From Lacisediminihabitans sp. (lineage in GTDB: Bacteria; Actinomycetota; Actinomycetes; Actinomycetales; Microbacteriaceae): a stretch of DNA of 64,000 bases. Below the pieces are notes generated by a model, which saw nothing but the letters and a program-made list of their open reading frames with translations, did not search any database and was not told the origin of the DNA. The stretch is from assembly GCA_043746355.1 (NCBI GenBank), contig JAYTRC010000055.1, positions 34,879 to 98,878 of the forward strand, read 5' to 3'. The position numbers were made by a program, and so were the translations under genes. Below, piece after piece: positions 7,863 to 37,970 of the stretch (position 1 is its first letter; every line of letters starts with the position of its first letter).

Positions 7863-8329
7863 GCTCGCAGTACCCGCACCAATTGCTCGAGTATCGGCAC
7901 CTGGCCCTTTACGACCTTCTCCATGGCCGTAGCGATGTCGATCCATTCCGCCCTGTCGATCTCAGGAAAACTCTGCATTCGACCCGATCGCGGCGGCCAT
8001 TCACTATCGAACGTGTTGCTCTCGACGAAGACCACCTCTGCAGCAGTGCTTGCGGCGAAGACCGTGACGACCTTGCCCGACGACTGGCTGAAGTCACCGA
8101 AGTGCTGGTAACGCTCATCCGGGGCCGGTGCTCCGATCTCCTCGCGGAACTCGCGAAGTGCTGCAGCGAGGTCGGCCTCAGCAGCCAGCGGCTCACCCTT
8201 CGGGATCGACCAGGCTGCGGCATCCTTCCGCCCCCAGAACGGGCCGCCCATATGCCCGAGAAAGACTTCGGTGCCCGCCGAGGTGCTGCGATGCAGCAGG
8301 ATGCCGCAGCTGCGGAGTATTGCGATCAT
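7859..8329 (-). CDS. NUDIX hydrolase
   Basis: WSIPKGEPLAAEADLAAALREFREEIG Nudix box; HMGGPFW and EWPPRSGRMQSFPEIDRAEW family motifs. Confidence 0.88.
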   Translation of the reverse strand: MIAILRSCGILLHRSTSAGTEVFLGHMGGPFWGRKDAAAWSIPKGEPLAAEADLAAALREFREEIGAPAPDERYQHFGDFSQSSGKVVTVFAASTAAEVVFVESNTFDSEWPPRSGRMQSFPEIDRAEWIDIATAMEKVVKGQVPILEQLVRVLRA

Positions 8330-10578: not shown

Positions 10579-10699
10579 AAGGTTGCAAGCTTACCGGCGC
10601 GTGCGTTTGCGGCATCAGGGTCAACTCCCGCGGTTCGCAGGGTTGCCCGATTTTGCTCAGTTAGAGTGCAGGAGCACGACTTGACGGGAGCTGGTGATT

Positions 10700-12010
10700 A
10701 TGTCGATCGATCCATCACGACGCACGACGCGAGGCGCACAGCCCGTTCGGCACGGCAGGCTGCACTCGAGCAAGCCCGTCGTCGCAGCCCTCCGCATTGT
10801 CGGGGTAGCGCTCGCCGTTGCCCTTGTGGGCTCTCTTTCCGTTGCAGGCATCGCGGTCTGGCAGGTCACCTCCAGCATCAAGACCGGGGTGCAGCTCACC
10901 GATAAAAACGGCAAGACCATTTCGCCGCCGCCCAATGTCGGGGCGATCGAAGGTGGCGTAAACCTGTTGCTCGCTGGCACGGATACTCGCTCAAACCAGG
11001 GCGGCCAGTTCGCAAACCGTGCAGACCAGGCTGCGAGCTCAGGAGCGGGCAACAACGATGTCACGATGGTGCTCCACATTTCCGCGGATCACACGAGCGC
11101 GACTGTTGTCAGCATCCCAAGAGACACCATGGTTTCGATACCGTCCTGCCCAAATGGTCACGGCGGTGCTTCGGGTGCGACATCGAGCGGGATGTTCAAC
11201 ACCACCCTCTCGCGTGGTGGGCTCAACTGTGTCGTGCTCACCGTCGAGCAGATGACCGGTCTCAGCATCCCCTATGCCGCCGAAATCACCTTCGACGGGG
11301 TAGTCGGAATGTCGAACGCTGTCGGAGGGGTGACGGTGTGCATTGCGTCTGCGATCCACGACCCCTATGTCGGGCTCAACCTGGCCGCGGGCGAGGTAAC
11401 CCTCCAGGGCTCCGATGCACTTGCTTTCGTTCGGTCTCGACACGGTGTCGGTGACGGAAGCGACCTCGGTCGCATCAGCAGCCAGCAGGTATTCCTCTCT
11501 GCCCTGGCCCGCAAGCTGACCTCGGCAGGTGTGCTCGGTAACCCGGTCGCGCTGTACTCGATTGCTAAGACCGCTGCATCGAACATGACACTGACCGATG
11601 GCCTGACCAACCCGACGACGATGGTGGCTATCGCTTTGGCGCTGAAAGGCGTCGGTCTCGGAAACATAAATTTCCTCCAGTACCCGACCACCGCTGATCC
11701 TGCAAATCCCAACCGGGTAATTCCGCTCACGTCGGCAGCTTCCGTGCTAAATGCAGCTCTTGTTGCGGATAAGCCGATCCAGTTGAGTGGGAAGGTCGGC
11801 CGCGCTGCCGAACTCGACCCCAACGCAACCGCGTCGGCAGTTGCGACCCCCGCGCCGAGTCCGAGTGGCAAGTCGACCTCTAAAGCGACCCCATCTCCCG
11901 CGGCGGCGACGGCTGCTCCGACGACTCCCGCGGTTGTGCTTCCCTCGAGTGTCACGGGGCAGACTGCCGCGCAGCAGACCTGCACGAAGAGCAGCGGGAC
12001 GAGTAAGTAG
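10700..12010 (+). CDS. LCP (LytR-CpsA-Psr) family cell-wall polymer ligase
   Basis: N-terminal TM; NLLLAGTDTR, NDVTMVLHI, VSIPRDT, ALAFVRSRH, SDLGRISSQQVFL; Pro/Ala/Thr-rich tail. Confidence 0.92.
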   Translation: MSIDPSRRTTRGAQPVRHGRLHSSKPVVAALRIVGVALAVALVGSLSVAGIAVWQVTSSIKTGVQLTDKNGKTISPPPNVGAIEGGVNLLLAGTDTRSNQGGQFANRADQAASSGAGNNDVTMVLHISADHTSATVVSIPRDTMVSIPSCPNGHGGASGATSSGMFNTTLSRGGLNCVVLTVEQMTGLSIPYAAEITFDGVVGMSNAVGGVTVCIASAIHDPYVGLNLAAGEVTLQGSDALAFVRSRHGVGDGSDLGRISSQQVFLSALARKLTSAGVLGNPVALYSIAKTAASNMTLTDGLTNPTTMVAIALALKGVGLGNINFLQYPTTADPANPNRVIPLTSAASVLNAALVADKPIQLSGKVGRAAELDPNATASAVATPAPSPSGKSTSKATPSPAAATAAPTTPAVVLPSSVTGQTAAQQTCTKSSGTSK

Positions 12011-12203
12011 GGCTGGCTGGTTCGGCCCCCATTAACGGCGCTCGGCCGTAGCCGGGGGCGCAGCGGGCTTCGTGACCTCACCCGCCCAATTCGCCAGGCA
12101 GGTCTCGACAAGCTCAACCCCGGTATTCCACACGGCAGCAGCTGCGAACGGCAAAGTGCACGCTCATGGCCGGCAGACACCACCCCGCGAATACCACGCA
12201 AAT

Positions 12204-12254
12204 CTCTCCACAGCCTGTGCAAAACGCCGACAACTTATCCCCATCTGTGGAGGA
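12204..12254. promoter_or_regulatory. Two head-to-head pairs of DnaA-box-like 9-mers upstream of nrdA
   Basis: CTCTCCACA (12204-12), TGTGCAAAA (12216-24), TTATCCCCA (12235-43), TGTGGAGGA (12246-54); each has 1-2 mismatches to TTATCCACA or its complement. Confidence 0.5.
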
Positions 12255-12259
12255 CACGC

Positions 12260-12309
12260 CCACTAGATGTGGTGTTGGCGCAATGTCGGAGGCCCGCTAT
12301 ATAGTGGTG
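12260..12309 (+). promoter_or_regulatory. Tandem NrdR boxes
   Basis: ccaCTAGATGTGGtgt (12260-75) and ccgCTATATAGTGgtg (12294-309) resemble the acaCwAtATaTwGtg NrdR consensus, upstream of an RNR operon. Confidence 0.75.
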
Positions 12310-12523
12310 AAACCGCAGAACAGCGACTTCAACCCCGGCTCGCAGGAGCCCCTCACAAGACGCATTCTGCACAGTTTCCGGGGGAGCAAGTTTCTAGAGA
12401 CCGAGAGACTGACAGTTTTTAGAGACAAATGGTTTTTAGTTACAAATTTTTAGAACTACGCACGTATTCAGGGGCATGGAAAGCGTCGAAACGACTTTCC
12501 CAGAGTTAATGAGTGGAGCACTG

Positions 12524-14974
12524 GTGGCAATCACCGTAGTCAAGCGCGACGGACAGCGCGAACCGTACGACGCGAACAAGATCAACCTGGCTATCGAGCG
12601 TGCCAGCGCAGGTCTCGACGACAACATCACCTGGGTCACCCAGATCGCCTCAGAACTCGAGCTCACCCTGTTCGACGGCATCACGACACAGCAGCTGGAT
12701 GAAGCAGTCATTCAGGTGGCCCTCCAGAACGTGAAAGACGACCCGGAGTTCGACACCGTCGCAGCCCGACTGCTGCTCAAGACCATCTACAAGCGCGTAC
12801 TCGGCGACTACGAGACAGCCGAAGAGCTCAAAGCACTCCACCGCAGCCACTTCAAGGCCAACGTCACCCGCGGAGTCGAAGAGGGGCTGCTCGACACGCG
12901 CCTCGTCGAACTGTTCGACTTCGACGTGCTCTCGGCAGCACTCGAACCAGCGCACGACGAACTTCTCAAGTACATCGGCCTCGTCACCCTGAACAACCGC
13001 TACGGAATCAAGGGTCGCAACGGCGACGCCCTCGAAGTTCCACAGTACTTTTGGATGCGCATCTCAATGGGCCTCTCGCTCAACGAGGCTGACCCCACTT
13101 CACACGCGCTCACGTTCTACGAGAAGATGTCGCAGCTCGAATACATCGCGGCAGGCTCGACCCTGGTCAACGCGGGCACCGTCTATCCGCAACTCGCGAA
13201 CTGCTTCGTCATGGAGATGCAGGATGACATGGAGCACATCGCCAAGACCACGCGCGATGTCATGTGGCTCACCAAGGGAACCGGCGGCATCGGGCTGAGC
13301 GTCACGAAGCTGCGCGCTCAGGGTTCGCCGATCCGCTCGAACAACACGACATCGACCGGCCCGATCCCGTTCATGCACACCATCGACTCGATCCTGCGAG
13401 CGGTGAGCCGCGGCGGCAAGAAGTTCGGCGCCCTCTGCTTCTACATGGAAAACTGGCACCTCGACTTCCCCGAATTTCTCGACCTCCGCCAGAACTCGGG
13501 CGACCCGTACCGTCGCACCCGCACAGCGAACACCGCCGTCTGGATCAGTGACGAGTTCATGAAGCGCGTGCAGAACGACGACGACTGGTACCTGTTTGAC
13601 CCGCTCGAAGTCTCTGACCTCAACGAGCTCTACGGCAAAGCGTTCTCGGTTCGGTACAACGAGTACGTCGCACTGGCCGAAGCCGGCCAGATGCGCATGT
13701 TCAAGAAGATCGGTGCACGCGAACAGTTCAAGTCGATCCTGATCTCACTGCAGACCACCAGCCACCCGTGGCTGACCTGGAAAGACACGATCAACAACCG
13801 TGCACTCAACAACAACACGGGCACCATCCACCTCTCCAACCTCTGCACCGAGATCACCCTGCCGCAAGACGAAGACAACGTCTCTGTCTGCAACCTGGTC
13901 TCGATCAACCTGTCGCGTCATGTGATCGACCTCGCAGAGGGCGGCCTGAAGATCGACTTCGACAAGATCGCAGCCAGCGCCCGACTGGCAGTTCGCCAGC
14001 TCGACAACCTGATCGACATCACCCGGTCCTCGGTGAAAGAGGCCGACTTCTCGAACCAGCAGAACCGCGCCGTCGGCCTCGGCGTCATGGGCTTCACCGA
14101 CATCGTCGAACGTCTTGGCTTCAGCTACGAGAGCGAAGAGGCGTACGACCTGATCGACGAGATCATGGAGCACGTCTCCTATGCGGCAATCGACGAAAGC
14201 ACGGAGCTTGCGAAGGAGCGCGGTTCATACCCGAACTTCGAGGGCTCACGCTGGTCTGAAGGTCTTGTGCCCATCGACACGATTGCACTCACCGAAGCCG
14301 ATCGCGACATGGAGATCAAGGTCAACCGAAAGACACGACTCGACTGGGATGCGCTGCGCACCAAAGTCAAGGGCGGAATGCGCAACGCGACCCTCATGGC
14401 TATCGCGCCGACAGCATCCATCGGCCTGGTTGCTGGCACGACCCCAGGATTCGATCCGCAGTTCTCGCAGATCTTCAGCCGCGCGACCTCGAACGGCAAG
14501 TTCCTCGAGGTGAACCGAAACCTGGTCGGCGACCTGCAGAAGCTCGGCATCTGGAACACCACCAAGGAGCAGATCCTGCGGAGCCAGGGCAACATCCAAG
14601 ACATCGACTCGATTCCGGATGCCGTCAAGGCCACATACAAGACCAGCTTCCAGCTGTCTCCGTACGCGTTCCTCGAGGTCGCCGCTCGAGCCCAGAAGTG
14701 GATCGACCAGGCGATCAGTCGCAACATGTATCTCGAGACGCGCGACCTCGGCGACATGATGGACATCTACATGTCGGCGTGGGAGCGCGGCGTGAAGACG
14801 ACCTACTACCTGCACATGAAGCCGCGTCACACCGCCGAGCAGTCCACGGTCAAGGTCAATAAGGCCGAAGAGCTCAATTCCACAGTATCTGTGCCGGCCG
14901 CGGCTGAAACGCCAGCCGCTGCACCCCGTCGAGGCTTCGGCTTCGGCGGGCTCGCACCCAAGACAGGGGAGTAG
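12524..14974 (+). CDS. nrdA: Ribonucleoside-diphosphate reductase alpha subunit with ATP cone; lacks the C-terminal CxxC
   Basis: ATP cone (VVKRDG), LANCF, SNLCTE thiyl-radical Cys, VCNL, TTYYL PCET tyrosines. Start at GTG 12524 (GGAG SD); alternative starts 12476 and 12509. Confidence 0.95.
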   Translation: MAITVVKRDGQREPYDANKINLAIERASAGLDDNITWVTQIASELELTLFDGITTQQLDEAVIQVALQNVKDDPEFDTVAARLLLKTIYKRVLGDYETAEELKALHRSHFKANVTRGVEEGLLDTRLVELFDFDVLSAALEPAHDELLKYIGLVTLNNRYGIKGRNGDALEVPQYFWMRISMGLSLNEADPTSHALTFYEKMSQLEYIAAGSTLVNAGTVYPQLANCFVMEMQDDMEHIAKTTRDVMWLTKGTGGIGLSVTKLRAQGSPIRSNNTTSTGPIPFMHTIDSILRAVSRGGKKFGALCFYMENWHLDFPEFLDLRQNSGDPYRRTRTANTAVWISDEFMKRVQNDDDWYLFDPLEVSDLNELYGKAFSVRYNEYVALAEAGQMRMFKKIGAREQFKSILISLQTTSHPWLTWKDTINNRALNNNTGTIHLSNLCTEITLPQDEDNVSVCNLVSINLSRHVIDLAEGGLKIDFDKIAASARLAVRQLDNLIDITRSSVKEADFSNQQNRAVGLGVMGFTDIVERLGFSYESEEAYDLIDEIMEHVSYAAIDESTELAKERGSYPNFEGSRWSEGLVPIDTIALTEADRDMEIKVNRKTRLDWDALRTKVKGGMRNATLMAIAPTASIGLVAGTTPGFDPQFSQIFSRATSNGKFLEVNRNLVGDLQKLGIWNTTKEQILRSQGNIQDIDSIPDAVKATYKTSFQLSPYAFLEVAARAQKWIDQAISRNMYLETRDLGDMMDIYMSAWERGVKTTYYLHMKPRHTAEQSTVKVNKAEELNSTVSVPAAAETPAAAPRRGFGFGGLAPKTGE

Positions 14975-14983
14975 AAAGACATC

Positions 14984-15079
14984 ATGGCAACGTTCGACAC
15001 TGTGCTTTCGCCCGAAGGCACCCAATACGAAGTTCCCACCGACCCGATGGACGAGCTGCACTGTGAGGCGTGCCAGTAA
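14984..15079 (+). CDS. 31-aa peptide MATFDTVLSPEGTQYEVPTDPMDELHCEACQ, resembling the RNR alpha C-terminal CxxC redox tail
   Basis: Translated by hand, not in the ORF track; ATG preceded by AGAAAG/GGGGAG; in frame with nrdA after its TAG; its TAA overlaps the nrdB ATG (TAATG). Confidence 0.75.
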   Translation: MATFDTVLSPEGTQYEVPTDPMDELHCEACQ

Positions 15080-16071
15080 TGGGAATTCTAGGAACCGGCC
15101 TGCAGGAAGGCCTCTTGCTCAAGCCGATCAAATACCAGTGGGCCATGGACCTCTACGACCAGGCGGTCGCAAACACCTGGTTTCCGAACGAGATCCAGCT
15201 CGGTGAAGATATCGCCGATTTCAAGAAGATGACAGACGAAGAGCGTCACGCCGTCACCTTCCTGATGAGCTATTTCAACCCGAACGAGCTGCTCGTCAAT
15301 AAGGCGCTCGCCTTCGGCGTCTACCCCTACGTCTCCGCGGCGGAGTGCAGCATCTACCTCGCCAAACAGATGTGGGAAGAAGCCAACCACTGCATGTCGT
15401 TCGAGTATGTGCTCGAGACCTTCCCGATCGACCGGGAGGCGGCGTACAACTCCCACGTCGACATCCCCTCGATGGCTCGCAAGGAAGCGTTTGAGCTCAA
15501 GTACATCAAGCGCATGACCGAGAACACACTCGACATCACGACGACAGCGGGCAAGAAAGATTTCGTCCGCAACCTCGTTGCATACAACGTCATCCTCGAG
15601 GGCGTCTGGTTCTACTCGGGCTTCATGGTGGCGCTGAGCTTCCGTCAGCGCAACCTGCTGCGCAACTTCGGCTCGCTGATGGACTGGGTCGTGCGCGACG
15701 AGAGCCTGCACCTCAAGTTCGGCATCAACCTGATCCTCACGGTTCTCGAAGAGAACCCAGACCTGCAGACCGAGGAGTTCGCTGCCGAAATCAAGCAGAT
15801 GATCCTGGATGCCGTGGAAATGGAAGAGGAATACAACCGCGACCTGCTGCCCGGTGGCATCCTCGGCCTCAATGCCAATTACATCAACCAGTACGTGAAG
15901 TACCTGGCCGACCGCAGGCTCGAAGAACTCGGCTTCGAGGCCGAGTACAACGTGTCGAACCCGGCGAAGTGGATGGCTGCTGCCAACGACACCCTGCAGC
16001 TGGTCAACTTCTTCGAGTCGACGAACACGTCGTACGAGTCGAACGCGTCGGCCACCGTCGCGGCCAAGTAA
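15079..16071 (+). CDS. nrdB: Ribonucleotide reductase beta subunit, class Ic (R2c, Mn/Fe)-type
   Basis: W34, first ligand E70 (Asp in class Ia), EEANHCMSF with Phe108 at the radical-Tyr position, LEGVWFYSGF, DESLH, C-terminal NFFE..SY. Confidence 0.92.
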   Translation: MGILGTGLQEGLLLKPIKYQWAMDLYDQAVANTWFPNEIQLGEDIADFKKMTDEERHAVTFLMSYFNPNELLVNKALAFGVYPYVSAAECSIYLAKQMWEEANHCMSFEYVLETFPIDREAAYNSHVDIPSMARKEAFELKYIKRMTENTLDITTTAGKKDFVRNLVAYNVILEGVWFYSGFMVALSFRQRNLLRNFGSLMDWVVRDESLHLKFGINLILTVLEENPDLQTEEFAAEIKQMILDAVEMEEEYNRDLLPGGILGLNANYINQYVKYLADRRLEELGFEAEYNVSNPAKWMAAANDTLQLVNFFESTNTSYESNASATVAAK

Positions 16072-16077
16072 CGGGTA

Positions 16078-16572
16078 GTGACACAGGTCTCACAGATCAC
16101 TCTCGCGCGGGTCGACTGGCTCGACCCGCGCGCTGAGGCGCTACGCGACGACATGAATGTCGAGATGGACGAGCTGTACGCAACTGCAGTTGCCAACCGC
16201 GACCCCGAAGTCATGAAAATCTTCTCGGCTGCTCTCGCTGTAGATCCGCCGACCATCGTCGGCACCGTGCTCGCGCTCGATGGTGAAGTGGCCGCGGGCC
16301 AGGCCGGCCTCCGTCCCCACGGTGATGCACTCGAGGTCAAGAAAGTGGTCGTGCATCCAGCCCAGCGTGGTCGCGGCATTTCTCGACTTCTCATGAACGA
16401 GCTCGAAGTGATTGCGCGCGAGCAGAGCTACACAAAGCTGGTTCTGCAAACCGGTGACCGCCAGCTCGCCGCGATCGCGCTGTACGAATCAATCGGCTAC
16501 GTCAAGATCCCGCCGTATGCACCGTACGAACTGATCTCGAACGCCGTCTGCTACGAGAAGCACCTCACCTAG
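16078..16572 (+). CDS. GNAT N-acetyltransferase
   Basis: EVKKVVVHPAQRGRGISRLLM..LVLQTGDRQLAAIALYESIGY. Confidence 0.88.
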   Translation: MTQVSQITLARVDWLDPRAEALRDDMNVEMDELYATAVANRDPEVMKIFSAALAVDPPTIVGTVLALDGEVAAGQAGLRPHGDALEVKKVVVHPAQRGRGISRLLMNELEVIAREQSYTKLVLQTGDRQLAAIALYESIGYVKIPPYAPYELISNAVCYEKHLT

Positions 16573-16666
16573 TTCTGTTTGCCAGCGCACAGCGTGACGG
16601 CGTAGCGTTCCACCCAGAGGTGCTCTCTAGACAGAGCACAAAGTCAACGCTGACCCAGGGAATCCC

Positions 16667-18232
16667 ATGACCAACCCGAGCAACTCCACTCTCTCTGTCG
16701 CATCCATTCTCAAAGAGACTGCAGAGCGCACCCCAGACAAGATCGCAATCGTGGTCGGGGCATCCGAAGTGACCTATGCCGACCTCTGGGAGCAGACCAG
16801 GCACTACGCCGGCGCGCTGGCATCGAAGGGAGTCAGGGAGGGTGACGCGGTGGCGGTGCTCATCCCGAATGTCGCAGACTTTCCTCGGGTCTATTTCGCC
16901 ATCCTGAGCCTCGGCGGCATCGTCGTGCCGATTCACGCCCTGCTCAAGGCAGACGAGATCGAATACGTGCTGAAAGACTCGAAGGCGACCATGCTCGTCT
17001 GCGCCGCACCCCTGCTCGGTGAGGGTGGGAAGGGCGCGAAGCAGGCGGGAGTCCCGGTGCTCTCTGTGCTTTCGCCCGAGCCGATCGAGGGGATCGACCA
17101 ACTCGAAAAGCTCGCCGCGGGTGCGGAGCCGATCCGTACCTACCTGCCGATGGCGCCAGATGCCACGGCGACGATCCTCTACACGAGCGGCACGACAGGC
17201 AAGCCGAAGGGAGCAATGGGCAGTCATTTCGCTCTGGTCGAGCAGACGAGTGTGCTGCTGCTGAACACTTTCGACATGGTTCCTGAAGATGTCATCTTCG
17301 GCGGACTACCGCTCTTTCACACCTTCGGACAGACGGTCACCCTGAATACCGGCTTCCGCGCGACCGCGAAGATCGTGCTGCTGCCCAAGTTCGACGGCGA
17401 GACCGCCCTCCGTACCCTCATCGACAATGAGTGCACGATCATGATGGGTGTTCCGACGATGTATATCGCGCTCCTCGAAGCTGCGAAGACAATCAAGGAA
17501 CGCCCGAAACTTCGCTTTGCGGTCTCTGGTGGTTCAGCCCTTCCGCTCGCGGTTATCGAGCGATTCACGGAGGAGTTCGGGGTGCCGATCTACGAGGGCT
17601 ACGGACTCACCGAGACCTCTCCGGTCGCGAGCTTCAACCATGTTGGTCGTACGCCGGTCGCCGGCAGCATCGGAACGCCGATCTGGGGCGTGGAGGTCGA
17701 GATCGCCAATGCTGAGATCGATGGCAGCATCGAACTGATGCCGATAGATGAACTCGGCGAGATCGTGATCCGTGGCCACAACCTCATGAAGGGCTATCTC
17801 AACCTGCCCGAGGAGACGGCGAAGGCGATCGTGGACGGCTGGTTTCGTACCGGCGACCTGGGAACGAAGGATGCGAACGGCTATCTCTGGATCGTCGACC
17901 GCAAGAAAGACATGATTCTGCGCAATGGCTACAACGTGTATCCACGCGAGGTCGAAGAGGTGCTGACCGCGCATCCCGCAGTCTCGACAGCCGCCGTCTT
18001 CGGTACGTCACACGAGACCCACGGTCAGGAGATCATGGCCGTCGTCGTGCTTGCGCCCGGCGCGACGGTCGCCGAGACAGAGCTGTACGACTATGCAAAG
18101 GAGAAGCTCGCCGCGTATAAATACCCGCGTCGGGTCGAGATCGTGCAGACCCTGCCACTCGGGCCAAGCGGCAAGGTGCTGAAGCGCGAACTCATCGTGC
18201 AGTACGAGGCTGAGGCTGCCGTCACAAGCTGA
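16667..18232 (+). CDS. Long-chain acyl-CoA synthetase (AMP-binding)
   Basis: YTSGTTGKPKG, YEGYGLTETSP, WFRTGDLG, GKVLKREL. Confidence 0.92.
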   Translation: MTNPSNSTLSVASILKETAERTPDKIAIVVGASEVTYADLWEQTRHYAGALASKGVREGDAVAVLIPNVADFPRVYFAILSLGGIVVPIHALLKADEIEYVLKDSKATMLVCAAPLLGEGGKGAKQAGVPVLSVLSPEPIEGIDQLEKLAAGAEPIRTYLPMAPDATATILYTSGTTGKPKGAMGSHFALVEQTSVLLLNTFDMVPEDVIFGGLPLFHTFGQTVTLNTGFRATAKIVLLPKFDGETALRTLIDNECTIMMGVPTMYIALLEAAKTIKERPKLRFAVSGGSALPLAVIERFTEEFGVPIYEGYGLTETSPVASFNHVGRTPVAGSIGTPIWGVEVEIANAEIDGSIELMPIDELGEIVIRGHNLMKGYLNLPEETAKAIVDGWFRTGDLGTKDANGYLWIVDRKKDMILRNGYNVYPREVEEVLTAHPAVSTAAVFGTSHETHGQEIMAVVVLAPGATVAETELYDYAKEKLAAYKYPRRVEIVQTLPLGPSGKVLKRELIVQYEAEAAVTS

Positions 18233-18368: not shown

Positions 18369-21300
18369 GTGACTGACGAGAAGACCCCGGGCTGGCTCGG
18401 CCGGCTCTGGGACTACATGCTGCGTCACCGACGTGGAGTCATCATCTCGTTCGGGGCAGCGCTGCTCGGAAGTGCGACCCAGGTCTTCGTTCCGCTCGTT
18501 GCTCGACAGATCGTCGACAACGTCATCGTCGCGAAGAACTCGCCGCTGCTGCCGTGGCTTGTGCTGCTCCTCATGCTCTCTCTCTTCACCTTCGGGTTCG
18601 CCTACCTGCGCCGATACCGCGGTGGCAAAGTCGCCCTCGAGGTGCAGAACGACCTGCGCAACGACATGCACGACCATCTGCAGAAAATGGATTTCACCAG
18701 CCTCGACGCAATGTCGACCGGCCAGCTCGTCTCGCGGGCAAACTCCGATTCAGCGCTGGTGCAGGGGCTGCTCAACATGATTCCGATCATGAGCGGCAAC
18801 GTCATCCTGATGGTGCTCTCGCTGGTCGTGATGTTCATCCTGTCACCACTGCTCGCGCTCGTCAGCCTGGTGGTGACGCCGCTGCTTGTCCTGGTGTCGT
18901 ACCGGATGCGCATCCGGCTGTTCCCGGCCAGCTGGGACGCCCAGCAGCGCGAGGGCGAGATCGCACAGATGGTCGACGAAGACGTGAGCGGTGTTCGAGT
19001 CGTTAAGGCCTTCGGTCGAGAGCGTCGGGAGCTTGAGCGGATGTCGGAGGTTGCCAGCGGCGTCTACGGCTCGCAGATGCGGGCGATTCGCATCGAATCG
19101 CGCTACCAGCCGCTGCTGCAGGCGGTGCCCGTTCTCGGCCAGGTGGCTGTGCTCGCGCTCGGCGGCTGGCTCGCGCTCAACCACGATCTCACCATCGGTA
19201 CCTTTTTGGCGTTCTCGGCCTACATCGCCCAGTTGATGGCGCCTGCACGCCAGCTCGCAGGCATCCTCACCGTGGGCCAGTTGGCGAAGGTGGGCATCGA
19301 GCGCATCTTCCAGCTGCTCGACAAACCGCCGGCGATCGTGGATGCTGCGGATGCCCGCGACCTCCCCGCTGGTGGCGGCGCGATCAGTTTCGCTGGGGTG
19401 AGCTTCGGTTACACCGCTCAAGCGAATGGCCCCGCTACCACCGTGCTCGACGGCATCGACCTCGAGATCGCGGCGGGAGAGCGGGTGGCGATCGTCGGCC
19501 CGAGCGGCGGCGGCAAGTCGACCCTGACCTCGCTCATCTCCCGTTTCTACGACCCCTCGGCAGGCAGCGTGAGCATCGAAGGCGTCGATGTGCGCGCCCT
19601 GCGCCTGCACTCGCTGCGCGAGAACGTCGGCATGGTGTTCGACGAGAGCTTTCTCTTCTCGGACTCCGTGCGGGCGAACATTGCATACGGAAAGCCCGAC
19701 GCCACGGACGAACAGATCGTGGCCGCGGCGACCGTCGCCCAAGCCCACGGGTTCATCGACGCCCTCCCGCGCGGCTACGACACCATCGTCGGCGAGCGCG
19801 GTCTCAGCCTGTCGGGAGGCCAGCGGCAGCGCATCGCCCTGGCGCGCGCGATTCTGTACGACCCGCGCATCCTGATCCTGGATGACGCAACGAGTGCGAT
19901 TGACGCGTCGACGGAAGAATCACTCCACGAGGCGCTTCGGGATGTCTTCGGCACTCGCACTGTAGTGCTGATCGCTCATCGCGAGTCGACGCTGCACCTT
20001 GCCGATCGCATCCTCGTCATGGAGCACGGTCGTATCGTTGCCGAAGGCAGTCACAACGACCTGCTCGACCGGAGCGCCGTCTACCGTTCGCTGATCACCG
20101 GACTCGACGAAGACACCGCGGAGGCGGTGGCACAGGGCAGCATCGAGGTGCTCGCCGGCCTTGTGGATCTCGGTGCCGGTGCGGGCCAGGAGAGGGTGGC
20201 CCCTGCTGTGAGCGCGACCAGCGCCCTCGGGATGGGGCACGGCGGCGGTGGTGGCCGAGGCGGCGGCCGGGGGATGGGTGCCCTTGCCGCCCCGACGCCG
20301 GAGTTGCAGGCGAGCGTCGCCGCACTCGGGCCACCGCGGGACATCCCCACGATCGACCTCGAGCGCGAGACCAGGCAGGATCGTGGATTCACCCTCGGCC
20401 GGGTGCTTGCAGAGTTTCGTCGGCCGCTGCTGCTCGGGCTGTTGTTCGTCGTGGTCGATGCGGTTGCCGGCATCCTCGGTCCATACCTGGTGAAGACGGG
20501 CATCGACGGCGGGGTAGAGACCGGTTCTGCTGCTGTGTTGTTCATTGCCTCGGGGTTCTTCCTGCTCGTAACCCTCGCCGACCTGATCGACGAGATCGCA
20601 GAGACCTTCGTCACCGGTCGCATAGCCCAGCGGGTGATGCTCTCGCTTCGGCTGCGCATCTGGGCACAGCTGCAGCGCCTCTCGCTGGACTATTACGAGC
20701 GCGAGATGGCCGGCCGCATCATGACCAGGATGACGACGGATGTCGACCAGTTCGAGTCACTCATCCAAAACGGGCTGCTCGGCGCTCTCGTCGCCATGGT
20801 CACGTTCGTCGGCGTCGGGATCACGTTGCTGATCGTGAACCTCGAGCTCGGACTCGCGACGCTGACGGTGATTGTTCCGCTCGCCATCGCCACAGTGCTG
20901 TTCCGACGTCGAGCAGAGCGGTTGTACGACGAGTCGCGTGAACGAATCGCGATCGTCAACGCCGACTTCCAGGAGAGCCTTTCGGGTGTTCGCGAATCGC
21001 AGGCCTTCGTGCACGAGGCCGAGACGATGAAGCGGTTTCACGGGCTTGGCGCACGCTACGTGTTCTCGCGGGTCGCCGCCCAGCGTTTGGTCGCCACCTA
21101 CTTTCCGTTCGTACAGTTTCTGTCGGGGGTGGCGAACGCGATCGTGCTCGGTGTCGGAGCCGGGATGATCGCCGGAGGGCAACTCACCACCGGTGCACTC
21201 ATCGCGTTCATCCTCTACATCGACATGTTCTTCTCGCCCATCCAGCAGCTCTCCCAGGTCTTCGACTCCTGGCAGCAGACCCGTGTGTCGGTCGGCAGGA

Positions 21301-36665: not shown

Positions 36666-37970
36666 TCAACCCTTCACGGCCAGGGTCAAAGCCTGGTCGA
36701 GGTCGTAAACAATGTCTTCGGGGTCTTCTATTCCGACACTGATTCGCACCAGCCCAGGCAGTACGCCCGCATCGAGCAACTGCTGCTCGCTCAGCTGCGC
36801 GTGGGTGGTGGATGCGGGATGGATGACGAGCGTCTTGGCATCTCCGATGTTCGCGAGATGGCTGGCGAGGTTCACCGACTCGATGAACTTCTGCCCGACT
36901 TCGCGGCCCCCACGCACCCCGAACGAGAACACCGCGCCCGGCCCCTTCGGGAGATATTTGCGGGCCCGATCGTAGTGCGGGTGATTCGGAAGACCTGCCC
37001 AGTTGACGAACTCGATCCGCGGGTCGTTCTCGAGCCACTCCGCGACGATCCTCGCGTTGTCGACGTGCGCCTGCAGCCGAAACGGCAGCGTCTCAACACC
37101 CTGCGCGAGCAGCCAGGCGGAGTGCGGTGACAGCGCAGGACCGATGTCGCGCAGCTGCTCGGCGCGCAGTCGAGTGAGAAACGCGTATTCGCCGAAGTTG
37201 CCGTGCCAGTTGAGCCCACCATAGGAGGGCACCGGCTGGTCGAACAGCGGGAAGTGCTCGTTCGCCCAGTGGAAGCGTCCAGACTCGACGACGACACCGC
37301 CGAGGGTTGTGCCGTGACCGCCGAGAAATTTGGTGGCCGAGTGGATGACGACATCGGCCCCCCACTCGATCGGCCGGTTCAGGTAGGGCGTGGCGATCGT
37401 GGAGTCGATGATCAACGGGATGTGGTGGGAGTGCGCGACCGCCGCCAGACCCTCGAGGTCGGCGACCTCGCCCGACGGGTTTGCGATGATCTCAGCGAAG
37501 ATCAGTTTCGTCGTGTCGGTGACGGCAGCGTCGTAGTCCTTCGGGTCAGAACCCTGCACGAACGTCGTCTCGACGCCGAACCTGCGCAGTGTTACATCGA
37601 GCTGGGTGATCGAACCGCCGTACAGGTTCGCGGATGCGACGATGTGGTCGCCCGCGCCGGCCAGCGATGCGAAGGTGATGAACTGTGCGCTCAGCCCGCT
37701 CGCCGTGGCGACAGCGCCGAGTCCGCCCTCGAGGGACGCGATGCGCTCCTCGAACGATGCGACGGTCGGGTTGCCGAGGCGCGAGTAGATGTTGCCGTAT
37801 TTCTGCAGGGCGAAGCGGGCCGCAGCATCCGTCGTGTCATCGAAGACGAACGCGCTGGTCTGGTAGATGGGAAGCGCACGGGCTCCGGTGACAGCATCGG
37901 GGATGTTGCCGGCGTGGATGGCGCGGGTGCGGAAGCCCCACGTGCGGTCGGTACTGTCGCGATCAGCCAT
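36666..37970 (-). CDS. metY: O-acetylhomoserine sulfhydrylase / aminocarboxypropyltransferase
   Basis: PIYQTSAFVF, YSRLGNPT, HSATKFLGGHG PLP lysine, HLANIGDAKTLVIHPASTTH. Confidence 0.93.
   Translation of the reverse strand: MADRDSTDRTWGFRTRAIHAGNIPDAVTGARALPIYQTSAFVFDDTTDAAARFALQKYGNIYSRLGNPTVASFEERIASLEGGLGAVATASGLSAQFITFASLAGAGDHIVASANLYGGSITQLDVTLRRFGVETTFVQGSDPKDYDAAVTDTTKLIFAEIIANPSGEVADLEGLAAVAHSHHIPLIIDSTIATPYLNRPIEWGADVVIHSATKFLGGHGTTLGGVVVESGRFHWANEHFPLFDQPVPSYGGLNWHGNFGEYAFLTRLRAEQLRDIGPALSPHSAWLLAQGVETLPFRLQAHVDNARIVAEWLENDPRIEFVNWAGLPNHPHYDRARKYLPKGPGAVFSFGVRGGREVGQKFIESVNLASHLANIGDAKTLVIHPASTTHAQLSEQQLLDAGVLPGLVRISVGIEDPEDIVYDLDQALTLAVKG

Follow-up and report, generated by a model that had tools for sequence, protein, structure and literature searches.

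Ribonucleotide reductase (RNR), which supplies the precursors of DNA, is essential and is among the most studied of enzymes, and in the textbook class I RNR it is the alpha chain that bears the re-reduction arm. This report concerns an RNR operon in which that arm appears to have become a gene of its own. The operon is located in a stretch of DNA of 64,000 nucleotides, hereafter called the window, from Lacisediminihabitans sp. of the family Microbacteriaceae (assembly GCA_043746355.1, contig JAYTRC010000055.1, positions 34,879 to 98,878). Three genes follow one another on its forward strand: nrdA (12476-14974), which Pfam and NCBIfam models identify as the gene of a class I RNR alpha subunit of 832 amino acids (aa), here tail-less; a small open reading frame (ORF) of 31 codons (14984-15079), which would be the detached redox tail of the alpha subunit; and nrdB (15079-16071), which encodes an RNR beta subunit of the class Ic type (R2c-like) with a match to Pfam Ribonuc_red_sm. 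The small ORF encodes the 31-aa peptide MATFDTVLSPEGTQYEVPTDPMDELHCEACQ, ending ...YEVPTDPMDELHCEACQ, so that a Cys-x-x-Cys pair is carried at the extreme C-terminus of a separate product.

According to Pfam, NrdA consists of an ATP-cone, an all-alpha domain (Ribonuc_red_lgN) and a barrel domain (Ribonuc_red_lgC). It scores 547.8 bits with PF02867 and 1612 bits with NCBIfam NF005101, class I alpha models fit it far better than NrdJ models, and the nearest solved structure is that of Pseudomonas aeruginosa NrdA (5im3). The catalytic residues C243, N455/C457/E459, C472 and Y777/Y778 are all there and are invariant in 42 relatives. With the barrel, the catalytic and redox Cys residues, the Asn and Glu residues and the YY pair in place, this is a class I alpha subunit; the redox Cys pair on a flexible tail of the same chain, a further class I trait, is absent from it. 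The protein ends in ...RRGFGFGGLAPKTGE, after which comes TAG at 14972-14974, and the last Cys is C472, so that the roughly 360 residues beyond it are Cys-free. A first-pass annotation, made by a model from the letters of the window alone, had described NrdA in these terms, with its active-site residues kept and a C-terminal Cys pair missing, and this description holds. The alignment with NF005101 ends at profile position 782 of 822, and the best 120 database relatives of a query read through the TAG into the small ORF are all 811-900 aa long and cover only 93-96% of that query. The window's genome, which is 99.8% complete, has a single PF02867 gene, and NrdD was sought in it and not found. 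As the sole RNR of the organism, NrdA must therefore turn over in vivo.

The small ORF was missing from the program-made list of ORFs. Its ATG at 14984 is located 9 nt past the nrdA TAG and in the same frame as nrdA, its stop codon is TAA (15077-15079), and a Shine-Dalgarno (SD)-like GGGGAG (14966-14971, forward strand) is situated inside the last nrdA codons, 12 nt upstream of the ATG. All of this agrees with the first-pass annotation, as does the overlap of TAA with the nrdB start in TAATG, with the small correction that the nrdB ATG is at 15079-15081 and one base is shared. Compared with its relatives described below, this copy is slightly atypical, with T, H and A replacing V, Q and S. The peptide has no Pfam or NCBIfam match at E<=0.1, and a word-based protein search with the read-through tail (residues 815-867) gave no matches. 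Phmmer with the 31-aa peptide against 1.8 billion representatives returned three matches, one 29-aa relative and two spurious repeat proteins, an uninformative outcome, given so short a query and the rarity with which small ORFs are called. A scan of 11800-16800 with Rfam at E<=1 found no RNA family, and hence no riboswitch or known recoding element.

Is the split a peculiarity of one strain? It was followed through some 20 genomes from the window's own genus and another 80 loci that represent more than 25 named genera of Microbacteriaceae (about 95 loci overall), among them Glaciihabitans, Rhodoglobus, Salinibacterium, Leifsonia, Clavibacter, Cryobacterium, Microcella, Pontimonas, Humibacter, Rathayibacter and Aurantimicrobium. 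In the 20 same-genus genomes and in 77 of the 78 usable loci, NrdA comes to an end soon after an RRGFG(FG)G motif and has no Cys pair there, and the small ORF downstream ends in [ED]YxVPxDPMDxLQCxSCQ. A continuous ORF in close orthologues, which would have marked the TAG as an error or a strain-specific mutation, was not seen. The details of the junction vary: relative to nrdA, the small ORF occupies frame 0, +1 or +2; all three stop codons, TGA, TAA and TAG, are found at the end of nrdA; the ATG or GTG start of the small ORF usually overlaps the nrdA stop (ATGA, GTGA, TGATG, TAATG) or is located 5-19 nt after it; and an SD-like GGAG, GAAGG or GGTGA occurs in the last nrdA codons, 5-12 nt before the start. 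In the 17-residue core of the peptide, Y-x-V-P-x-D-P-M-D-x-L-Q-C-x-S-C-Q, the proportion of synonymous differences (pS) among 98 copies is 0.56 and that of non-synonymous differences (pN) is 0.117, giving a pN/pS of 0.21. Both Cys residues and the terminal Gln are invariant in all 98 copies, including those of the phage type, and eleven non-Cys positions before CxxC are nearly so. Invariant residues are nevertheless written with a variety of codons, Val with four and Ser with AGC, TCC and TCG. This synonymous variation, together with the pN/pS of 0.21, argues that the small ORF is translated and is subject to purifying selection. On these comparisons the recurrence of ORF, start and motif in about 95 loci, with synonymous codon variation, is far beyond chance.

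The probable origin of the peptide can be seen in sister families. A motif profile of 22 columns (A1) was searched in 401 genomes of the order. In the families f15 (Demequina), f14, f8 and f23 it matches the extreme C-terminus of ORFs of 873-1108 aa that contain the NrdA TTYY motif, and it is only in the window's own family that the motif stands free, in open frames of 34-64 aa. When 401 genomes sampled across the phylum were searched, A1 gave only two further matches, both fused. The Demequina tail GGVACPVDPMEALQCESCQ is close to GGYAVPVDPMDDLQCDSCQ, the peptide of the orphan type described below, and the Demequina consensus, ...[VI][GD]GVACPVDPME[AR]LQCESCQ, is nearly identical to the free peptides. 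When the window's own peptide is read through the TAG, the product matches the NrdA profile NF005544 up to its C-terminal end (965/965). Some fused forms have a short linker, with RRGFGG followed by 10-25 aa and then [VI]DG-x-x-CP-x-DP-x-ERLQC-x-x-CQ, and since they show both elements in that order, the fission would have taken place precisely in the interval from RRGFGFG to the tail motif. Open frames of 800-964 aa at some of the peptide matches were considered as further fused genes and rejected; each is an artefact of reading high-GC DNA in an alternative frame, with an internal start codon.

Two features of these C-termini deserve separate mention. The RRGFG(FG)G motif (window 14925-14950, NrdA residues about 817-825, PRRGFGFGG) ends every tail-less NrdA and also precedes the tail in fused relatives, where it is in some cases repeated; it might act as a hinge or serve to dock the tail or the reductant. 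Fused tails (L114-L141; ..A-C-P-V-D-P-M-E..) have a third Cys where the free peptides have Val, and the free peptides have an invariant Tyr two residues before that Val (Phe in the copy of a reduced genome) that the fused forms do not have; in these positions tethered and free tails differ systematically.

Free peptide and tail-less enzyme occur strictly together. In a survey of 151 genomes from 101 genera of the family, the peptide motif was found in 72 genomes and a class Ic-type tail-less NrdA in exactly the same 72, with no discordant case; the check proposed in the first-pass annotation, whether the peptide occurs only alongside tail-less NrdA, thus came out in its favor. The number of peptide copies varies: two in 44 genomes, three in 17, one in six, four in three and five in two. 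The window's genome has a second copy on another contig, far from nrdA and here called the orphan (G000:C74, about 165083-165163, minus strand; L112 1498-1581 and L151 about 8102-8185 in the extracted loci), which encodes MDNNNDFVGGYAVPVDPMDDLQCDSCQ. It scores 51.7 bits with the family profile versus 47.5 bits for the operon copy, and between genera the orphan type varies less than the operon copy does, with the consensus MD[NY][DE]N.D.[VI]GGYA[VI]PVDPM[DE].LQCDSCQ. Its position is syntenic in five of six genera compared, directly upstream of two MaoC/HadAB-like dehydratase genes and murB. Only an unlinked copy is present in a reduced genome of 0.9 Mb, which is probably of the Tropheryma lineage, in G148, in G500 and in a Homoserinimonas metagenome-assembled genome, where nrdB directly follows nrdA and the peptide copy is far off; only the operon copy is present in G545. 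Either copy can apparently suffice.

The beta subunit fits an enzyme of class Ic. NrdB has Phe at the position of the radical Tyr (EEANHCMSF) and Glu at the position of the first metal ligand (FNPNELLV), the two residues by which class Ic is recognized, and its best matches in the Protein Data Bank (PDB) are structures of the Chlamydia trachomatis R2 protein (1syy, 4d8f, 2ani; E about 1e-69). On these residues and nearest structures the enzyme is class Ic-like. The flanks of the operon are ordinary and unrelated to it: a LytR_cpsA_psr family protein is encoded upstream (10694-12010) and an AMP-binding, acyl-CoA synthetase-like enzyme downstream (16667-18232).

The operon and the orphan gene also resemble each other in their upstream regions. 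An NrdR operator is a pair of partially palindromic boxes of 16 bp each, spaced by 15-16 bp, in which C4, A6, A8, T9, T11 and G13 are conserved, and a published survey accepted box distances of 14-17 bp (PMC13584703). Upstream of nrdA, box 1 (CCACTAGATGTGGTGT, 12260-12275, forward strand) has all six conserved positions and box 2 (GCCCGCTATATAGTGG, 12292-12307, forward strand) has five of the six, with C at position 6; the linker of 16 bp is within the published spacing. In many relatives box 2 reads CGATATATAG and has all six positions. The tandem boxes are kept upstream of nrdA in 70 of 75 related loci, with a linker of varying sequence, and nrdR is present in the window's genome (147 bits, above the cut-off). 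With its boxes, their spacing and nrdR itself, nrdA is by sequence a member of the NrdR regulon. A near-identical tandem pair precedes the orphan gene. A genome-wide scan (2.9 Mb) with a strict, family-specific tandem pattern found two sites only, one upstream of nrdA and the other upstream of the orphan gene, and the orphan operator is kept in 11 of 11 syntenic orphan loci examined, which are from different genera. Its box 1 is a perfect palindrome, ACACTAcATGTAGTGG, and reads ACACTATATATAGTAG in the reduced genome. The published loose NrdR pattern is not discriminating, as it gave 149 pairs in the genome; one extra match, between a LemA-like gene and apt (contig C93), was considered as an NrdR site and looked like chance.

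Other conserved or repeated elements were noticed in the same regions. A conserved inverted repeat, GGAATGACA-N3-5-TGTCATTCC, fills the box linker of the orphan gene (L112/L151, L143, L148, L149, L153, L157 and L161), whereas the nrdA linker is not conserved; it could be the site for a second regulator. In the nrdA leader (12405-12465), before the start codon, an AT-rich word occurs three times with spacing, as GTTTTTAGAG, GGTTTTTAGTT and ATTTTTAGAA, which is unusual at the GC content of the genome.

Free tail peptides are encoded by phages as well. Clavibacter phage CMP1 encodes MGDGEYTVPQDPMDEFQCDSCQ (GQ241246, about 36703-36771; L166 2991-3059) and Pontimonas phage phiPsal1 encodes MSDPFDAIDRVDGIDVPIDPMDLLQCTSCQ (MG835450, about 18372-18464; L165 2990-3082); neither ORF is annotated, and in both phages the start codon overlaps the stop of a preceding holin gene. 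In IMG/VR, 181 contigs encode a relative of the peptide, and the 80 of them that were fetched have it as a free ORF of 18-30 aa with no NrdA within 3 kb. These ORFs are often located just after small membrane (holin-like) genes, and one viral contig has an NrdH/glutaredoxin (Grx)-like ORF following the peptide gene. Some of the IMG/VR contigs may be host fragments; CMP1 and phiPsal1 are isolated phages, and hence are not. Carriage by viruses indicates that the peptide is selected there independently. The phage copy may be a micropeptide auxiliary metabolic gene.

Chromosomal copies beyond the operon and orphan copies, the third to the fifth, have no NrdR-like boxes. In two loci (L156 and L163; G570:C2 and G455:C1) such extra copies directly follow an ORF for an excisionase/AlpA-like helix-turn-helix protein (..YKPTPRTVLYKREEVIAWLE..), and they are probably in integrated mobile elements or prophages. 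A different case is G486, a genome with five copies, where a tail motif, ..GDYLVPTDPMDELGCDSCQ, ends an open frame of 212 codons (L154 2564-3202, minus strand, G486:C21); counted from the first internal ATG (MTTSYGPQPGDTLRY...), the product is about 115 aa long with an unrelated N-terminal part, so that the tail may here be fused to another small domain.

We conclude that the small ORF is very probably a real, translated gene whose product, a free micropeptide, serves as the redox-active C-terminal tail of a class I RNR alpha subunit. A tail made separately and acting in trans had been suggested in the first-pass annotation, and comparative evidence, namely selection, start codons of its own, homology to fused tails, co-occurrence and unlinked copies, supports it strongly. 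The outline of its proposed history and action is as follows. In an ancestor of a Microbacteriaceae clade, a fused nrdA would have been severed within the spacer that separates RRGFGFG from the tail motif. The operon would have kept the tail gene, with translational coupling to nrdA and often to nrdB, and a duplicate would have reached at least one other locus. In established class I chemistry, the Cys pair of the tail reduces the active-site disulfide and is itself reduced by thioredoxin (Trx) or Grx (PMC4078304). By analogy, the Cys-x-x-Cys of the reduced peptide would enter the active site of tail-less NrdA, reduce the C243-C472 disulfide made in each turnover and depart as an intramolecular disulfide, to be re-reduced by thioredoxin or a similar reductant. 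The Y-x-V-P-x-D-P-M-D-x-L segment would dock the peptide to NrdA, to the reductant or to both. A thioredoxin homologue (WCGPC) is encoded in the window's genome; tblastn with E. coli NrdH and GrxA found nothing there, which is a weak test and not proof of absence. Once the tail is unlinked, its dosage would be set separately, by one to five gene copies, one of them behind an NrdR-like operator, and by the copies that phages and integrated elements bring with them.

Several points weigh against a free tail acting in this way. A peptide of 25-30 aa loses the high local concentration that a tether provides, and efficient turnover would need tight binding or high abundance. An attempt to reassemble a class II enzyme in trans in vitro, with its parts expressed separately, did not succeed (PMC5704485), and because of that failure function in trans cannot be taken as automatic. 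Structure prediction is of little help to the proposal, as an AlphaFold2 model of the read-through fusion has a mean predicted local distance difference test (pLDDT) score of 35, from an alignment of 42 sequences that are all at least 85% identical. Finally, the orphan operator departs from the pattern, with G in box 2 at the critical C4 and a linker of 17 bp instead of 15-16 bp, so that NrdR control of the orphan copy is not secure. In a variant of this reading the peptide would be a stable third subunit, held on NrdA by Y-x-V-P-x-D-P-M-D-x-L while CxxC swings between the active site and thioredoxin in the manner of a tethered tail. The eleven nearly invariant positions before CxxC suggest a binding interface, the translational coupling of the operon copy to nrdA favors co-assembly, and NrdJb, the separate C-terminal part of a class II RNR, makes a defined complex with NrdJa (PMC4520616). 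We regard such a subunit as possible though rather doubtful, since one to five copies per genome, and copies on phages and mobile elements that have no NrdA, fit a dosage-sensitive and exchangeable factor better than a fixed 1:1 component. Variable copy number and phage copies make us lean, on genomic grounds, to the exchangeable factor.

The remaining explanations do away with a free tail altogether. Recoding would join the tail to NrdA by readthrough or frameshifting, so that the functional protein is still fused; regulated UAG readthrough had indeed been the other mechanism offered in the first-pass annotation. The layout in the window invites this idea, with an ORF in the nrdA frame only 9 nt behind a TAG and a read-through product that reaches the end of NF005544, and one subclade has the same frame-0/TAG layout. 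The relatives, however, speak against it: with three frames, three stop codons and no common slippery or recoding context, and with a start codon and SD sequence for every copy, a common recoding mechanism is excluded across them as far as sequence comparison goes, and in the several genomes without any nrdA-adjacent copy, as for orphan and phage copies in general, there is nothing that could be joined to NrdA. Many genomes, that of the window included, have distant copies behind promoter regions of their own. Readthrough was thus not borne out as the mechanism, and we consider recoding most improbable; a minor UAG readthrough might occur in the window's species, where the in-frame TAG is one of several layouts, but it is not needed to explain the data. 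A role outside the electron path is somewhat less remote, though still improbable. The peptide might regulate the active-site entrance competitively, much as Sml1 competes with the R1 tail, or aid the Mn/Fe assembly of a class Ic beta subunit, while NrdA is re-reduced directly by another reductant. CxxC motifs can bind metal, the operon copy is located immediately before a class Ic-type nrdB, and phage copies could in principle be inhibitors. Yet the motif is the natural C-terminus of NrdA, not of NrdB, in the sister families and matches the end of an NrdA profile; the sole RNR is the tail-less NrdA, whose C-terminal region offers no other Cys pair; and both Cys residues and the terminal Gln never vary, even in phage-type copies. 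Least credible of all is an artefact or decay, in which the stop would have come from faulty sequencing or from a nonsense mutation peculiar to the strain, and the ORF behind it would be a decaying remnant, since this is refuted by the conserved split, purifying selection, perfect co-occurrence, extra copies with conserved operators and phage copies.

If the free-tail reading is right, what would follow from it? Free tails could be an overlooked third component of class I RNR that limits turnover; synthesis of deoxyribonucleoside triphosphates (dNTPs) could be tuned through the NrdR-controlled orphan gene and through copy number; and the 20-30-aa copies of Microbacteriaceae phages and integrated elements could be the smallest known auxiliary metabolic genes, by which dNTPs of the host are raised or hijacked without an RNR. 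We put this forward tentatively, and would not call it the probable outcome. A natural free arm of about 25 residues would show that tethering is dispensable, and a synthetic peptide would become a chemical handle on the poorly resolved re-reduction half-cycle, in which the tail enters the active site and meets thioredoxin. Peptide dosage would be a new layer of dNTP control, and the phage copies point to a new kind of auxiliary gene. A tie to peptide abundance had been suggested in the first-pass annotation, which had missed the multiple gene copies, the orphan with its NrdR-like operator and the phage copies; such a tie is plausible. The peptides add a conserved micropeptide family that gene callers mostly miss or mislabel, and the consequences for annotation are considerable: judged by the usual criterion, NrdA entries of Microbacteriaceae would look defective in their hundreds, among them those from plant-associated Clavibacter and Leifsonia and probably from the reduced-genome Tropheryma lineage.

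A trace of these peptides can be found in the databases. The 25-aa ORF of the Clavibacter operon copy, MNDDTFGDYVVPMDPMDELQCDSCQ, is on record as 'Ribonucleotide reductase, alpha 2 subunit' (CCE76311.1 and a UniRef entry), and a few genome records hold the Clavibacter or Leifsonia ORF, some of them mislabelling it as 'subunit beta'. An annotator has evidently noticed this ORF, yet it appears uncharacterised. A full-text literature search found no paper describing or testing a split class I RNR tail peptide, and large surveys of RNR C-termini, which cover split NrdJ and class II enzymes that lack a tail, do not discuss a class I tail that is split off.

Among known systems, the peptide is most directly comparable with the tails of class I alpha subunits, such as E. 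coli NrdA (C754/C759) and eukaryotic R1 (CX2C). Its Cys-x-x-Cys is at the extreme C-terminus, it is homologous to the fused Actinomycetales tails, and its presumed job is the same, re-reduction of the active-site disulfide with recharging by Trx or Grx (PMC4078304). Unlike those tails, it is an untethered gene product of 20-35 aa with one to five gene copies, some of them far from nrdA and some on phages. The closest precedent for a split RNR is the class II enzyme NrdJa/NrdJb of P. aeruginosa, of which both parts are needed for function (Crona et al., 2015, PMC4520616). There too, the catalytic body and the Cys-bearing C-terminal part for dithiol exchange are encoded by separate, adjacent genes (PMC4520616). 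NrdJb, however, is a folded, zinc-binding, Cys-rich domain of a B12-dependent class II enzyme (Loderer et al., 2017, PMC5704485), whereas the peptide is an unstructured-looking 17-residue motif with two Cys residues only, belongs with a class I (Ic-type) enzyme, is multi-copy and is carried by phages. Judged from these features, the peptide and NrdA work like a split RNR and are not members of the NrdJa/NrdJb family. The third comparison is with NrdH-redoxin, thioredoxin and glutaredoxin, which are likewise small, diffusible CxxC dithiol carriers serving RNR, a role that homology suggests for the peptide. These proteins have about 75-110 aa, with CxxC at the N-terminus of helix 1; the peptide has 31 aa and no thioredoxin fold. 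By homology it would act one step further down the electron chain than the redoxins, in place of the enzyme's own tail.

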